From: a virus
Taxonomy: Duplodnaviria; Caudoviricetes
Virus record (IMG/VR): IMGVR_UViG_3300028601_000022
Location: 78,807 to 142,806 of that record
Length of the DNA stretch: 64,000 nucleotides
Reading direction: 5' to 3' (one strand)
The first letter of the stretch is position 1. Every line of letters begins with the position of its first letter. Made by a program: the position numbers and the translations under genes. The notes beneath the pieces are model-generated. The model did no database searches and was not told the origin of the DNA. It saw only the letters and a program-made list of their open reading frames with translations. Positions 562-8,475 of this stretch are shown here, in pieces.

Positions 562-1089
562 CTAAAGGTCTTCCTTGCGAACGTAGCCACGCGCTAGTGT
601 AACCAGGTCGCTCATGGAAGAAGTAGCGGTGCTAAGGTTAAGGGACGCTTCCTCGTCCTTGCCAAGAGGCTCGAACTCTTGATGCACCCCAGTGAGGCAG
701 TCTGCATTCTTTCCGTACAGACCCTTGCTGTCACGGGCAGCGCACACGTCCAACGGTGTGGAGATGTATATGAGGCGGAATTTATCCTCACCAATAATAC
801 TTTGTGCTGCCTGCCGCATAGACTTCATTGGCGTAATCATGGACACAACGCACGATATGCCCTGGTCATTGCACAACTTGCAGATACCAGCAACCCGTCG
901 GACGTTTTCAAGCCGGTCTTCCAGGGAAAATCCCAGGTCAGAACAGATGCTTTGGCGGATAACATCACCGTCAAGGTGAAGGTAAGGCATCCGCATTTTA
1001 GTGATAATTTCCTTGGCAAAAGTGGTCTTTCCGGCTCCTGACAAACCGAATATCCAGACCGTCCGCACCTTACTCGCGTTTACGCACAT
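562..1089 (-). CDS. cysC: adenylyl-sulfate (APS) kinase
   Basis: P-loop GLSGAGKTT, LDGDVIR, LGFSLEDRLENVRR, CAARDSKGLY, TGVHQEFE; GGAGG RBS. Confidence 0.93.
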   Translation of the reverse strand: MCVNASKVRTVWIFGLSGAGKTTFAKEIITKMRMPYLHLDGDVIRQSICSDLGFSLEDRLENVRRVAGICKLCNDQGISCVVSMITPMKSMRQAAQSIIGEDKFRLIYISTPLDVCAARDSKGLYGKNADCLTGVHQEFEPLGKDEEASLNLSTATSSMSDLVTLARGYVRKEDL

Positions 1090-1101
1090 TTAATCCTCCA
1101 T

Positions 1102-1245
1102 TCAATACGTTACATCTGAATCGGCAGGATATACCCGCCCACACTTGATGCACTCCACTATCCTCTTTTTAGCCATGAAAATCTTAGGTTCAGTAGGGCT
1201 ACCCAGTACGGTCGCCGCAGCAGATGTAGAAGAACCTCCGCTCAT
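1102..1245 (-). CDS. small protein with CxxC motif
   Basis: ATG 1245 after AAGGAGG; ECIKCGR motif. Confidence 0.5.
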   Translation of the reverse strand: MSGGSSTSAAATVLGSPTEPKIFMAKKRIVECIKCGRVYPADSDVTY

Positions 1246-1300
1246 TATAGCCTCCTTTAGGTAACCTATCTTCATATACTTAAACGTCATTTAGGATATT

Positions 1301-1406
1301 GGAACAAAACGTGTGTATTGACACGCGCAGCGAAAATATAACCCAATAGGAACGCCTACGGGTGCCCTATGGTGTGTCCAGGGTACTCATAGGCGCTCCT
1401 ATTTCC
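1301..1406 (-). repeat. dispersed intergenic hairpin element, copy C (inverted)
   Basis: reverse complement GGAGCGCCTATGAGTACCCTG...CGTAGGCGTTCC...GCGTGTCAATACAC matches copies at 22590 and 45633. Confidence 0.75.
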
Positions 1407-1413
1407 TAGTTTT

Positions 1414-5891: not shown

Positions 5892-5893
5892 GA

Positions 5894-6829
5894 TTATTTT
5901 CCTCCGAAGCTTGTCATGCAAAGAATGTCGCACAGCATGCACTTAGGGCTGTCAGAGTAGCACCTGTACAGTTCCGAGTGCCCGCAGTCCATAAGGACTT
6001 CCTTACCGTCCGCAAGAACAGGCTTCTGGTCATTTGTGCCGTAGCGATTGTGAAGGCCACCGTACTTGTAGATGCCAGAGTGATAAGAGGAAGAAACCGT
6101 GTCCATGTATATCTTATGGTGAGTCTTCTCCAGATAGAGGAGGAAGTTGAGGAAGTCCCTGCGCTTGAAGAAAAAGTCGGTAAGCTGCTTTCCTGTATGA
6201 ACCGGGTGAGGGTACAAGAATACCAGGGAGCAGCCGGGTATTTCTTCATCCAGGAAACGCTGAATGCTGAATTTGCCGCTGAATACCTGGTCAATGACGT
6301 GCTGTGTAAGAATCATTTGCACACCCACGCCGTAGTTGTAACGGTCACGGAAGGCCAGGATATTCTTCAGCGCAAGCAAGCGCATTTCTTCCGTCTTGTA
6401 CCTGTATTTCAGGTCGTAGGAGAAGTTCACGTCAAGGACTTTGGAGGTACATTCCTCAACGATGCGGTCGCAAACACGATAGAGAAACGAGGGCTCATAC
6501 ATGCCATTGGTGACAGTAGAGTAGCGGCAGCGCGGGTTCTTGGAAACCTTCAGCACCTTCTCTATGATGTCCTCTATGAGGAGCATGAACTCATCCTCAT
6601 AGATAGGGTTACGGTAGCCGTAAACCTCACCGCCCAGCAAAGATATACCGTGGGAGAACTTGCCAGCCCAGTCAACGTAGTTGAGGTTATCGCGTATGTT
6701 CCGCACGTGGGTGATTATTTGCTGCAAGGACCGGTCTTGCCGGTCCAAGCGCAAACAGAAGTCGCAATTGCCAGTGCAGTTGGGAAGGACACCATACTGC
6801 ACACAGTATCCGTCAGGGCCAGAACTCAT
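5894..6829 (-). CDS. radical SAM-like protein, paralog 3
   Basis: CTGNCDFC, GGE, TNG, SYDLKYRY, ILTQ, KRRDF, DCGH...CYSDSPKCMLCD. Confidence 0.85.
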   Translation of the reverse strand: MSSGPDGYCVQYGVLPNCTGNCDFCLRLDRQDRSLQQIITHVRNIRDNLNYVDWAGKFSHGISLLGGEVYGYRNPIYEDEFMLLIEDIIEKVLKVSKNPRCRYSTVTNGMYEPSFLYRVCDRIVEECTSKVLDVNFSYDLKYRYKTEEMRLLALKNILAFRDRYNYGVGVQMILTQHVIDQVFSGKFSIQRFLDEEIPGCSLVFLYPHPVHTGKQLTDFFFKRRDFLNFLLYLEKTHHKIYMDTVSSSYHSGIYKYGGLHNRYGTNDQKPVLADGKEVLMDCGHSELYRCYSDSPKCMLCDILCMTSFGGK

Positions 6830-7782
6830 AGCCGGGCTCCCCCTTCAGTATCCAGCATTTTGAGGATGTCGCATGCGTAGCATTCATCCGAATCGGCATA
6901 ACTGCGGCAGTACACAAAGTGGCCGCAAGGAGCAAGCAGGTCAAGGTCGTGGCTAGTGTGGTTCTTTACATCACGCCACACCGTCATGTCCTGGATTGGT
7001 CGGTACACGTTCGTAGCACGCCGCCCTGACTGGTCTGCAAAGCGACGCCACAGGGGGAAGTTGTTCTTCATAAGAAAGAAGCAGAAAGCCACGAACGAAG
7101 ACCGCTTCGGAAGGAAGTCTGCCGGAAGCATAAGGCTGTGCCTGTCGCCAATTGTACCGATAAGGTCAAGCAAGCGACCAGGGAATACCTTGAGCATGCG
7201 CACGATTCGCTTGTCGCCGCCCATGTAGGCGTCGATAAGGAACTGCGACAGGATGGTGGTACAGTGGACTTTGCAGCCTGTACGCTTTACCTTGCCCAGG
7301 TTAATCCACCATTCGCGCTCGTTGGCTTTCGTGAAGCGGTACTTTATGTCATAGCTTGTGCCGACCATAACACGGTCAATGAAGCCTGCCGCTTTGAACT
7401 TTTCCAGAGTAAACTGGAGCAACGAGTCTTCATACTTGAATTTGAGGCTCGTGATGGGATACAGCTTTTTGAGCTTATCCTCCTTCATAAGGAGAATAAG
7501 CTCATCCAGGAGCCTTTCATAGGTAGGGAGCCATTCCTGGTCGTAACCATTCATAATCTCCCCACCCTGAAAGGACACCTCGTCAAACTGGTTCCAGTCG
7601 ATAGTGGGCAGGTGGCCCAGAATCTGCTCCAGAATGTCTTTCTTTTCAGCGGGTGAGCGGAACCGCTCAGGGTCGCAGGTATTGTCGCCATTAGCCGTAT
7701 AGGCTAGGGAGCAGAATGCGCACCTGTTCTCTCTGCATTCATTCCAGAACTCAAACTGGATGATTTCCTTGTCCTTTTTCAT
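6826..7782 (-). CDS. radical SAM-like protein, paralog 4 (CX4CX2C variant)
   Basis: QFEFWNECRENRCAFC, GGE, TSYDIKYRF, ILSQ, PKRSSF, PCGH...SYADSDECYACD; 4-nt overlap with paralog 3. Confidence 0.8.
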   Translation of the reverse strand: MKKDKEIIQFEFWNECRENRCAFCSLAYTANGDNTCDPERFRSPAEKKDILEQILGHLPTIDWNQFDEVSFQGGEIMNGYDQEWLPTYERLLDELILLMKEDKLKKLYPITSLKFKYEDSLLQFTLEKFKAAGFIDRVMVGTSYDIKYRFTKANEREWWINLGKVKRTGCKVHCTTILSQFLIDAYMGGDKRIVRMLKVFPGRLLDLIGTIGDRHSLMLPADFLPKRSSFVAFCFFLMKNNFPLWRRFADQSGRRATNVYRPIQDMTVWRDVKNHTSHDLDLLAPCGHFVYCRSYADSDECYACDILKMLDTEGGARL

Positions 7783-7794
7783 ATTCCCCTCGGT

Positions 7795-8475
7795 CTATGC
7801 TACAAGATTATACCAGGCGATGTAGGAGCAGGAGCTTGAAGAACTGGAAGAGCAGGAACTGGAAGAACTCGAGGAGCACGAGGAGCTGGACGAGCTGGAC
7901 GAGCAAGACGAGCAAGTAACTGCCATCGCGCCCCAACTGACAGAGCAGGGGGCGGCTTTGTATGCGTCGATGCCGTCCTTCAAAGCAGCCAACATGCCGG
8001 TAATGTCAGAAGCCTTGATGGGCTCAAGTTCCGACGGCTCCGTGATTGCAGGAAGGGGATTGTTCACAAAGCAGCGCGAAGTGAGGCCATTCGTGGGGTT
8101 TGTAACCACCACAAAGCGCACCGAAGTGTAGGTGGCCAGGCATGTAAGGAAGTGAATCAGACCCTTCAGAGTGATAAGGTTGTCCATCTTGGACGCAAAC
8201 CCGTTTTCATTGATGAAGGTGTTCCATGCCGCAGTGAATGCCGCTGTGGTAACGATGGGTGGGCGGCCAGAGAAGTTAATGTCCAACCTGGCAGCGGCAG
8301 CCTTCAACTGGCCAGTAACCGTAACGGTACGGCCAGTGAAGCTGGGGTCTGTGATATTGCCTTTGTAAACGTCAAGGTTGTCGATAGAGGTCTTGAGGGT
8401 TTCAAAAGCCTCATTAACAACCTGTCCAAACGTAATAACTGCACCGGGTAAAATAGCCATAAGCTCAATCTCCAT
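7795..8475 (-). CDS. protein with C-terminal Cys/poly-Ser tail; candidate substrate of the rSAM cluster
   Basis: ends CSSCSSSSSSSSCSSSSSSSCSSSSSSSCSYIAWYNLVA; lies immediately upstream of the rSAM run. Confidence 0.8.
   Translation of the reverse strand: MEIELMAILPGAVITFGQVVNEAFETLKTSIDNLDVYKGNITDPSFTGRTVTVTGQLKAAAARLDINFSGRPPIVTTAAFTAAWNTFINENGFASKMDNLITLKGLIHFLTCLATYTSVRFVVVTNPTNGLTSRCFVNNPLPAITEPSELEPIKASDITGMLAALKDGIDAYKAAPCSVSWGAMAVTCSSCSSSSSSSSCSSSSSSSCSSSSSSSCSYIAWYNLVA

Follow-up and report, generated by a model that had tools for sequence, protein, structure and literature searches.

Arrays of radical SAM enzymes adjoining Ser/Cys-tailed proteins in uncultured jumbo phages: a candidate protein-modification module

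What might a phage modify with several radical SAM (rSAM) enzymes encoded side by side with a carbamoyltransferase and with a protein that has a Ser/Cys run near its C-terminus? The question is raised by one end of the window, the whole stretch of 64,000 nucleotides analysed here, which belongs to a giant, uncultured landfill and wastewater phage. We regard it as moderately probable that the locus represents, in a form particular to this lineage, a conserved and hitherto undescribed tail/baseplate module of jumbo phages, in which dedicated rSAMs modify the Ser/Cys tract of the adjoining protein H. The genes concerned are as follows.

8541..9062, minus strand: P, 173 aa, its gene always next to that of H, without a Pfam, PHROG or PDB-profile match.
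7795..8475, minus strand: H, the candidate substrate, a folded domain of ~185 aa with a Ser/Cys tail (AF2 model and open reading frame).
7825..7914, minus strand: Ser/Cys tract of H, 30 codons, 25 Ser and 5 Cys, arranged C-S2-C-S8-C-S7-C-S7-C-S.
7798..7824, minus strand: hydrophobic C-terminal cap, in this lineage YIAWYNLVA, a variant of the family cap motif.
6826..7782, minus strand: rSAM of the minor orthogroup E (tree, motif counts), with CX4CX2C and the C-terminal CGH...CxxC kept.
5894..6829, minus strand: rSAM of orthogroup C, clade support 100, the most conserved (32/33 loci).
4389..5942, minus strand: TobZ/NodU-type carbamoyltransferase, 517 aa, accessory (PF16861 3e-40, PF02543 1e-21, phrog_1601 3e-72).
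3454..4380, minus strand: rSAM of orthogroup D (tree), at 33/33 loci with 1-3 copies per locus.
2534..3433, minus strand: lineage-specific 299-aa protein, with homologs confined to the window, L032 and L033.
1620..2525, minus strand: rSAM of orthogroup B, at 27 loci, without the C-terminal CGH/CxxC site.
Between the rSAM at 1620-2525 and the APS kinase, minus strand: two small open reading frames.
562..1089, minus strand: CysC-like APS kinase (PF01583 7e-37), probably outside the conserved system.
28812..29759, plus strand: rSAM of orthogroup A, detached from the array (hmmsearch 2e-30; clade support 99), one copy, at 29/33 loci.

All cassette genes lie on the minus strand, in the order H, rSAM, rSAM, carbamoyltransferase, rSAM, 299-aa protein and rSAM. 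This order, the common orientation and the gaps of 20 nt or less had been given in an initial annotation and were confirmed from the open reading frames, every junction from the H gene to the rSAM at 1620-2525 being at most 20 nt or overlapping. The 299-aa protein had no family or PDB match, and an Atlas search returned unnamed viral clusters only. A scan for promoters and terminators gave counts not above those of shuffled sequence. Between the rSAM array and cysC, a weak hairpin at 1326-1309 (minus strand) is a hint only.

The features of the radical SAM superfamily, the cluster motif with GGE and a partial TIM barrel, are present in the array enzymes, and the Pfam rSAM family (PF04055) was matched weakly by three of the four copies, with 18-23 bits where the cut-off is 29.5. 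Their description as four clear paralogs with shared motifs held, as they are 24-28% identical in pairs and have invariant positions that include C11, C15, C18, GGE, S..D...R, KR..F and C275...Y.DS. The count had to be extended by the fifth copy on the plus strand, and the N-terminal CX3CX2C attributed to all four occurs in three, the rSAM at 6826-7782 having CX4CX2C instead. Across rSAM orthogroups A-D, CX3CX2C is retained and GGE is intact. In the tree, orthogroups A-D have supports of 98-100 and a canonical order of H-A-B-C-D, and they are near-universal among the 33 loci scanned.

At the C-terminus, the motif CGH...Y.D...CxxC provides three Cys and a His; orthogroup C has four Cys and orthogroup B none. 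The CxxC is missing from the rSAM at 1620-2525, in agreement with the earlier remark that the motif is degenerate in this paralog. Assignment of this Cys cluster to the SPASM/twitch class was refuted as far as SPASM is concerned, since three Cys and a His do not make up the 7-Cys motif (CX9-15GX4C-gap-CX2CX5CX3C-gap-C) and no SPASM family was matched in Pfam or NCBIfam. In anSME, ChlB and CteB, it is the SPASM/twitch region that aligns with this segment (model range 1-308). No nearly invariant internal Cys of the kind that serves epimerases as hydrogen donor was seen in the rSAM alignment.

The protein at the head of the cassette, H, has its probable start at Met6 (8460), judging from relatives that begin with MAI(I/L)P. 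Its residues 188-217 are the 25 Ser and 5 Cys, followed by the cap. In the AF2 model (mean pLDDT 74) the tail is disordered, and the fold has no convincing relative, with a best Foldseek E-value of 0.5 and Z below 5 in a VIA-wide search. Across the family, the cap follows x-[FY]-[IV]-[AGV]-[YWFH]-[MFY]-x-[ILV], typically x-F-I-A-Y-M-x-I. The composition of the tract is extreme: 642 Ser, 89 Cys and 2 Asn were counted in 30 distinct tails, 1082 Ser, 213 Cys and 6 others in 67 independent representatives, and 2026 of 2034 tract residues (99.6%) across relatives are Ser or Cys. In the window all six Ser codons are in use. Compared with its 86% relative (L032), the 30 tract codons show 13 synonymous and no non-synonymous differences, and 5 of the 9 cap residues differ. 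Strong selection keeps the tract to Ser and Cys. Several tails are pure Ser, so Cys is dispensable.

The tail and the enzymes occur together. Of the related jumbo-phage loci, 31 extend beyond the upstream end of the rSAM array, and a tailed protein was found at 31 of 31, namely 30 of the 33 scanned (window included) and one more, L046; three truncated loci are without it. The initial annotation had proposed a test for such co-occurrence in other phages, and the result was positive in both search directions. A DNA scan with the FIAYMxI-stop motif alone recovered 12 real tails, 12/12 of which adjoin rSAMs, and four divergent H homologs, found by a profile search with the tail removed, have rSAMs downstream in 4/4 cases. 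Homologous rSAMs lacking a tailed neighbour, named in advance as counter-evidence, were seen at none of the related loci that could be judged. Unrelated proteins of 518 aa and 640 aa bear the tail in the same position, and in L011 and L017 the modules H, H', P and the rSAMs are duplicated together. BLAST clustering gave P homologs at 27 of the first 31 loci, and phmmer at nearly all loci. Judged from these genomes, the linkage of rSAMs with tailed proteins is obligatory and two-way, and the conserved core is P, H and rSAM orthogroups A-D. Because several rSAMs always adjoin a Ser/Cys-tailed protein, the tail is probably the rSAM substrate. A predicted complex of the orthogroup-D rSAM with full-length H scored 0.01, a value without weight either way.

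A Ser tract alone need not be a substrate, because pure poly-Ser linkers exist in ordinary secreted enzymes. The tail could be a flexible poly-Ser linker that bears a short docking peptide, with H (and P) serving as an assembly factor or scaffold, and the rSAMs could act on another late product, for example a glycan, a small molecule or another protein of the tail or baseplate. We consider this unlikely. It would account for the predicted disorder of the tail, for a cap heptad that is conserved and hydrophobic, as docking strands typically are, and for one rSAM being translationally coupled to a baseplate hub gene and not to H. However, a mere linker would be expected to tolerate Thr, Gly, Ala, Asn and Pro, all of which a single mutation in a Ser codon can give, and such residues make up 8 of the 2034 tract positions against 302 Cys. 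Strict adjacency of tail and array and the transfer of the tail onto unrelated N-terminal domains also fit a substrate better.

The carbamoyltransferase was correctly named in the initial annotation as NodU/CmcH-type. Like TobZ, NovN, GdmN and NodU, it has both family domains above the Pfam thresholds (Carbam_trans_N 78.3 bits, cut-off 24; Carbam_trans_C 137.9 bits, cut-off 27), which places it in the NodU/CmcH/TobZ family (PF02543 with PF16861), and the HxxxH metal motif is present as HHLYH. TobZ is nearest in the PDB (5e-45), and NovN and GdmN were also matched. The score for the NodU equivalog was 108 bits against a cut-off of 1000. Since the N-domain profile (346 positions) is matched only at 131-345, the enzyme diverges over its first ~90 residues, and as the GTG start overlaps the upstream rSAM by 49 nt, the true start is uncertain. 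The gene lies in or beside the array at 6/33 loci and, from this distribution, is a recurrent accessory and not core. Sugars and small molecules are the substrates of those TobZ-family enzymes whose structures are solved, which would suit a tail that is a linker. That the family can also carbamoylate a C-terminal Cys of a protein is shown by its relative HypF, which acts in this way on HypE.

The neighbouring cysC encodes an APS kinase as annotated: a member of PF01583 (127.3 bits, cut-off 21.1; TIGR00455 127.5 bits, just below 138.7) with the P-loop GLSGAGKTT, an LDGD motif and matches to PDB APS kinases up to 1e-27. Its place in the cluster did not hold, as it occurs only in the window and the 86% relative (2/33 loci) and is absent from a 54% relative. 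Neither Sulfotransfer_3 nor ATP-sulfurylase was matched on the 142.8-kb contig. We take it to be a neighbouring auxiliary gene that would lie outside the core.

For the orthogroup-D rSAM (AF2 model, pLDDT 93), YydG/EpeE was the best match both in PDB profiles (1e-6, 175 positions, 7-181, chain residues 31-184) and in Foldseek (5e-7). The nearest solved relatives are peptide-modifying enzymes, YydG/EpeE in the profile search and SuiB and anSME in the fold comparison; statistically, viperin and BlsE rank level with them. The nucleotide and sugar enzymes BlsE (Z 13.8), viperin (13.6) and MoaA (13.2) fall within 1 Z unit, so the fold leaves the substrate class undecided. These ties could be taken to mean that the rSAMs work with the carbamoyltransferase and the kinase in hypermodifying nucleotides or DNA, a pathway to which H would be unrelated, the more so as hypermodified DNA is frequent among phages and known routes of DNA modification include carbamoyl and kinase steps. 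Such a pathway is very improbable here. The viperin match covers only the first 60 profile positions against 175 for YydG, the arrays are located in tail/baseplate modules and not near replication or nucleotide genes, the kinase is a good APS kinase confined to two loci, and linkage to tailed proteins is universal.

YydG/EpeE, which acts on the Bacillus subtilis epipeptide YydF/EpeX (PDB 8ai1-8ai6), is likewise a small rSAM (~320 aa). Further points in common are the CX3CX2C at the N-terminus, an additional metal site, putative in the phage enzymes, at the C-terminus, and a gene that adjoins that of the substrate, which in the phages is a candidate. However, the phage rSAM is only ~14% identical to it, and the region of the EpeE catalytic residues D210 and C223 does not align. 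EpeE is one enzyme acting on Val/Ile of a 49-aa peptide, whereas the phage system has four or five paralogs in a structural-gene context and, as candidate substrate, a 220-aa folded protein with a Ser/Cys-only tract. The anaerobic sulfatase-maturing enzyme anSME (anSMEcpe/AtsB; PDB 4k36-4k39) carries two auxiliary clusters in a complete SPASM domain, and its recognition motif is C/S-x-P/A-x-R. The phage enzymes are several, have too few Cys ligands (three and a His) to be classed with it and face dozens of potential target residues without a motif; no Pro or Arg motif of that kind was found in the 30 distinct and 67 representative tails. In comparison with the SPASM/twitch RiPP maturases SuiB, SkfB, CteB, ChlB, PqqE and QhpD, they lack an RRE or leader-binding domain as well as the 7-Cys SPASM motif and have no Pfam/NCBIfam membership, and Cys is dispensable in their candidate substrate. 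Many rSAM genes in one phage have a precedent in the Campylobacter phages CP220/CPt10, with 11-12 (PMC2853527), and no tailed partner is described for these.

The kinship to YydG, a RiPP enzyme, also bears on whether the tail might be a RiPP-like core that is cut off, giving a modified peptide or a PQQ/mycofactocin-like cofactor made from the aromatic cap. We hold this to be quite unlikely, even though several rSAMs directed at one short C-terminal segment resemble RiPP and cofactor pathways and an aromatic residue (Y/W/F/H) is retained in the cap. The aromatic position is not fixed to a single amino acid, the module has no conserved protease, transporter or immunity gene, and it is located among structural genes. 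As to RiPP features in general, a substrate-like gene adjoins the enzymes, but no RRE/PqqD match was obtained in Pfam or NCBIfam. A Tyr-specific, mycofactocin-like reaction was set aside, as the aromatic cap position varies between Y, W, F and H.

If dedicated rSAMs do modify the tract, each would cleave SAM to the 5'-deoxyadenosyl radical and take hydrogen from tract residues. Because only -CH2-OH and -CH2-SH side chains are tolerated, the chemistry is probably at the beta-carbon or its leaving group. Candidate products would be formylglycine, by anSME-like oxidation, or dehydroalanine, by radical dehydration; epimerisation and cross-linking may also occur on the tract. Thioether formation (sacti/ranthi) as core chemistry, one of the options first proposed, is unlikely because several tails are pure Ser. 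From the initial idea of a RiPP-like line modifying the Cys/Ser tail, the linkage of tail and array in all judgeable loci thus stands, and the thioether core, the APS kinase and SPASM do not. The hydrophobic cap and P would probably serve recognition or presentation. In this lineage, the TobZ/HypF-type carbamoyltransferase might carbamoylate remaining Ser/Cys or a product hydroxyl, and the mass shift of +43 Da would give a second handle on the product. The lack of an RRE, a protease and a canonical SPASM domain in the module counts against this explanation, as do the missing internal Cys of the epimerase type and the absence of the module from cultured phages.

Should the tail prove to be what the rSAMs modify, the module would be the first multi-rSAM pathway for protein modification carried by phages, would bring four new rSAM families and would offer a very simple, genetically defined target, a Ser/Cys run with a seven-residue cap. 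The system is widespread, with 516 clusters of the H family at 50% identity (among 1.84 billion proteins) and 173 rSAM homologs at E <= 0.001 from one query. The module is known only from uncultured jumbo phages of sludge, wastewater, landfill and other metagenomes. It was absent from cultured phages (megablast and tblastn against GenBank phages), with no match by tblastn of window rSAM and H in 50,697 GenBank phage records, and no description of an rSAM/Ser-Cys-tail system was found in the literature. For the c4 family, a PDB profile search was empty, and one weak Aminotran_5 match was found among 12 c4 proteins in Pfam at E <= 10. None of the listed sequencing runs holding the stretch is recorded as RNA. 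Four wastewater 'RNA-Seq' runs, probably DNA, contained scattered contig fragments of related strains and are uninformative on expression.

The initial annotation had considered H possibly virion-associated. This is plausible from gene context alone, as connector-like, tail-fibre-like, gp25-like, lysin-like and gp5-like genes are among the neighbours. The product would most likely stay on a late, tail-associated protein, and the module may reveal a new phage means of decorating tail structures. A further step, tentative and rather doubtful, is that a run of 10-45 Ser/Cys on a tail-module protein is converted by four rSAM families into a polymer-like appendage, carbamoylated here, for example for virion adhesion or host recognition; poly-formylglycine, poly-dehydroalanine or a cross-linked ladder would be candidates. 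The detached rSAM at 28812-29759 overlaps the gp5-like baseplate hub gene (29729-30616; Phage_base_V 6.5e-6, phrog_430/9992) by 31 nt, and this gene pair recurs in L033.

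The window forms the final 64 kb of a linear IMG/VR virus contig of 142.8 kb, whose CheckV completeness of 52% puts the full jumbo phage at about 275 kb. Near-identical DNA is present in landfill, activated-sludge, and wastewater metagenomes, and the GenBank phage records gave no match to the region, to its radical-SAM enzyme (rSAM) at 3454-4380, or to H, the candidate substrate protein with a C-terminal Ser/Cys tract and a hydrophobic cap. The genes concerned are arranged as follows:

9062 to 562, minus strand: gene run of P, H, rSAM, rSAM, carbamoyltransferase, rSAM, a 299-aa unknown, rSAM, two small ORFs, and APS kinase
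P, minus strand: 173-aa partner protein beside H, first gene of the 9062-562 run
H, minus strand: 226 aa, with the C-terminal end CSSCSSSSSSSSCSSSSSSSCSSSSSSSCS-YIAWYNLVA

From H through the last rSAM of the run, neighbouring genes overlap or are separated by 20 nt or less. The initial annotation had described this run from H onward and the paralogy of its rSAMs; family searches and alignment bore out both with minor corrections. The four array rSAMs are 24-28% identical in pairwise comparison and have all of the motifs listed in that annotation in common, with CxxC absent from the copy at 1620-2525, and a fifth paralog was added at 28812-29759 (+) by an HMM built from these four (2e-30). A weak terminator-like hairpin (1309-1326, minus strand) lies between the two small ORFs that follow the last rSAM and precede the APS kinase gene (cysC); it might end the cassette transcript ahead of cysC, although the promoter and terminator scan was overall no better than shuffled sequence.

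For the rSAM at 3454-4380 (D-type, see below), 173 unnamed homologs were found at E <= 0.001, many of them on contigs of 200-290 kb. All 33 loci collected for comparison contain arrays of 4-8 paralogous rSAMs, and a tree of 151 rSAM sequences resolved four near-universal orthogroups and a minor one:

Orthogroup A: 29 loci, one copy each, support 99
Orthogroup B: 27 loci, support 99
Orthogroup C: 32 loci, support 100
Orthogroup D: all 33 loci, 1-3 copies, support 98
Orthogroup E: minor group

Canonically the genes run in the order H-A-B-C-D, and the lineage of the window has H-E-C-carbamoyltransferase-D-unknown-B with A displaced. Every orthogroup keeps the SAM-cluster motif, which takes the form CX4CX2C in E, and B is devoid of the C-terminal CGH...CxxC site. 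Two loci (L011 and L017) carry entire modules of tailed H, untailed H, P, and rSAMs duplicated inside one phage genome, with eight rSAM genes in 21 kb in L017.

When all ORFs were scanned, one or more proteins with a C-terminal Ser/Cys tract and hydrophobic cap turned up in every locus that extends upstream of the array; the three loci without such a protein are all truncated. In one phage group the tailed gene had been overlooked by gene callers because of overlapping ORFs. Proteins of 518 and 640 aa bear the same tail at the same position. When IMG/VR DNA was scanned for the FIAYMxI-stop motif alone, 12 real tails, each of them beside rSAMs, and three chance matches were recovered. A tail-free profile of the H domain identified 516 clusters at 50% identity among 1.84 billion proteins. 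Among the best 150 of these, 67 are tailed and the remainder are mostly an untailed paralog that often comes after H; four of four divergent tailed representatives have these rSAMs downstream. The proposed association of tail and array withstood a search of related loci for rSAMs lacking a tailed neighbour, as no such case was found.

The tract comprises 642 Ser, 89 Cys, and 2 Asn in 30 distinct tails, and 1082 Ser, 213 Cys, and 6 other residues in 67 independent representatives, with a Cys share of 12-16%. Cys-free tails exist. Over 30 tract codons, the window and its 86% relative differ by 13 synonymous and no non-synonymous changes, whereas five of nine cap residues differ. Taken together, the restriction to Ser and Cys, the Cys-free tails, and the purely synonymous codon changes point to a chemistry that makes no distinction between -CH2-OH and -CH2-SH, and beta-carbon oxidation or elimination would fit this rule best. 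The composition argues against an obligatory thioether and also against a simple linker. A linker or scaffold role for the tail, with the rSAMs acting on another substrate, is rather unlikely: the tracts essentially exclude Thr, Ala, Gly, Asn, and Pro, all of which a plain linker should tolerate and each of which is one mutation away from a Ser codon. The leading explanation, which we consider fairly probable, is that rSAMs modify the Ser/Cys tail of H in a way not described before, and the window would carry a variant of this system with an added carbamoyltransferase. A literature search found no paper describing an rSAM/Ser-Cys-tail system, and the multi-rSAM Campylobacter phages CP220 and CPt10 (PMC2853527) are its sole loose precedent. 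For the globular domain of H, a fold relative was sought and none was recognisable.

The D-type enzyme gave a confident AF2 model (pLDDT 93), for which Foldseek ranked EpeE first (5e-7), followed by viperin, BlsE, anSME, SuiB, ChlB, and SkfB. YydG/EpeE was also the best match of the rSAM family profile among PDB sequences (1e-6). These rankings place the family closest to mostly peptide- or protein-modifying rSAMs. The C-terminal motif consists of three Cys and a His and is not a SPASM domain. As modelled, the fold alone would leave room for nucleotide or sugar substrates, and modification of DNA or nucleotides would be compatible with it; however, viperins align to only the first 60 profile positions, as compared to 175 for YydG/EpeE, and we regard a DNA or nucleotide target as very improbable. 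Production of a released RiPP or a cofactor is judged distinctly improbable as well.

The initial annotation had counted both the carbamoyltransferase and the APS kinase as cluster members; the former is retained here as an accessory, and the latter probably does not belong. The carbamoyltransferase is clearly identified (Carbam_trans_C 3e-40, Carbam_trans_N 1e-21, phrog_1601 3e-72, TobZ 5e-45) and occurs in six of the 33 loci, invariably inside or beside the array; we interpret this enzyme as carrying out a tailoring step that is optional. HypF, a relative within this family, carbamoylates the C-terminal Cys of HypE and so provides a precedent for a protein Ser/Cys as carbamoyl acceptor. The kinase is equally clear (APS_kinase 7e-37; solved APS kinases 1e-27). 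Since it is confined to the window and its 86% relative among the 33 loci (it is absent from the 54% relative), and since the Sulfotransfer_3 and ATP-sulfurylase families had no match on the 142.8-kb contig, it was treated as a neighbour. The 299-aa protein is restricted to the lineage of the window. Many arrays (17 of the first 31 loci), though not that of the window, contain a conserved protein of ~330 aa (L002:7064-8053 and homologs), for which Atlas features point to a class-V aminotransferase/cysteine-desulfurase fold (score 0.94-0.95); it has THA in place of SxHK, where the PLP lysine would sit.

On the upstream side of P, the window has a connector-like gene (phrog_17327, 2e-25) and other phages have tail-fibre-like genes. 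The orthogroup-A rSAM, about 20 kb from the remaining cassette, shares a 31-nt overlap with a gp5-like baseplate hub gene (pair at 28812-30616); the surrounding block also encodes a gp25-like protein and a transglycosylase/NlpC-P60 tail lysin. The pair is also present in the 54% relative, where the array directly abuts the baseplate block. The overlap suggests translational coupling of the rSAM with baseplate assembly. Given the neighbouring connector, tail-fibre, and baseplate genes, the module belongs to the late, tail-building gene set, which supports a virion-related target, short of proof. In both the 86% relative (L032:3270-5171) and the 54% relative (L033:2328-4274), the connector-like gene and P are separated by an inserted homing-endonuclease-like gene (633-648 aa; DUF7487; phrog_3339 3e-14), which the window lacks.

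Elsewhere in the window, a 512-aa protein is encoded at 40003-41541 (+), just upstream of a putative RecA/UvsX-like gene (41626-43077, assigned by eye). Its C-terminal half (about 270 aa) consists of long Asp/Glu runs alternating with KKSSKKRR-type basic repeats, and its gene is responsible for the strong local AT skew.
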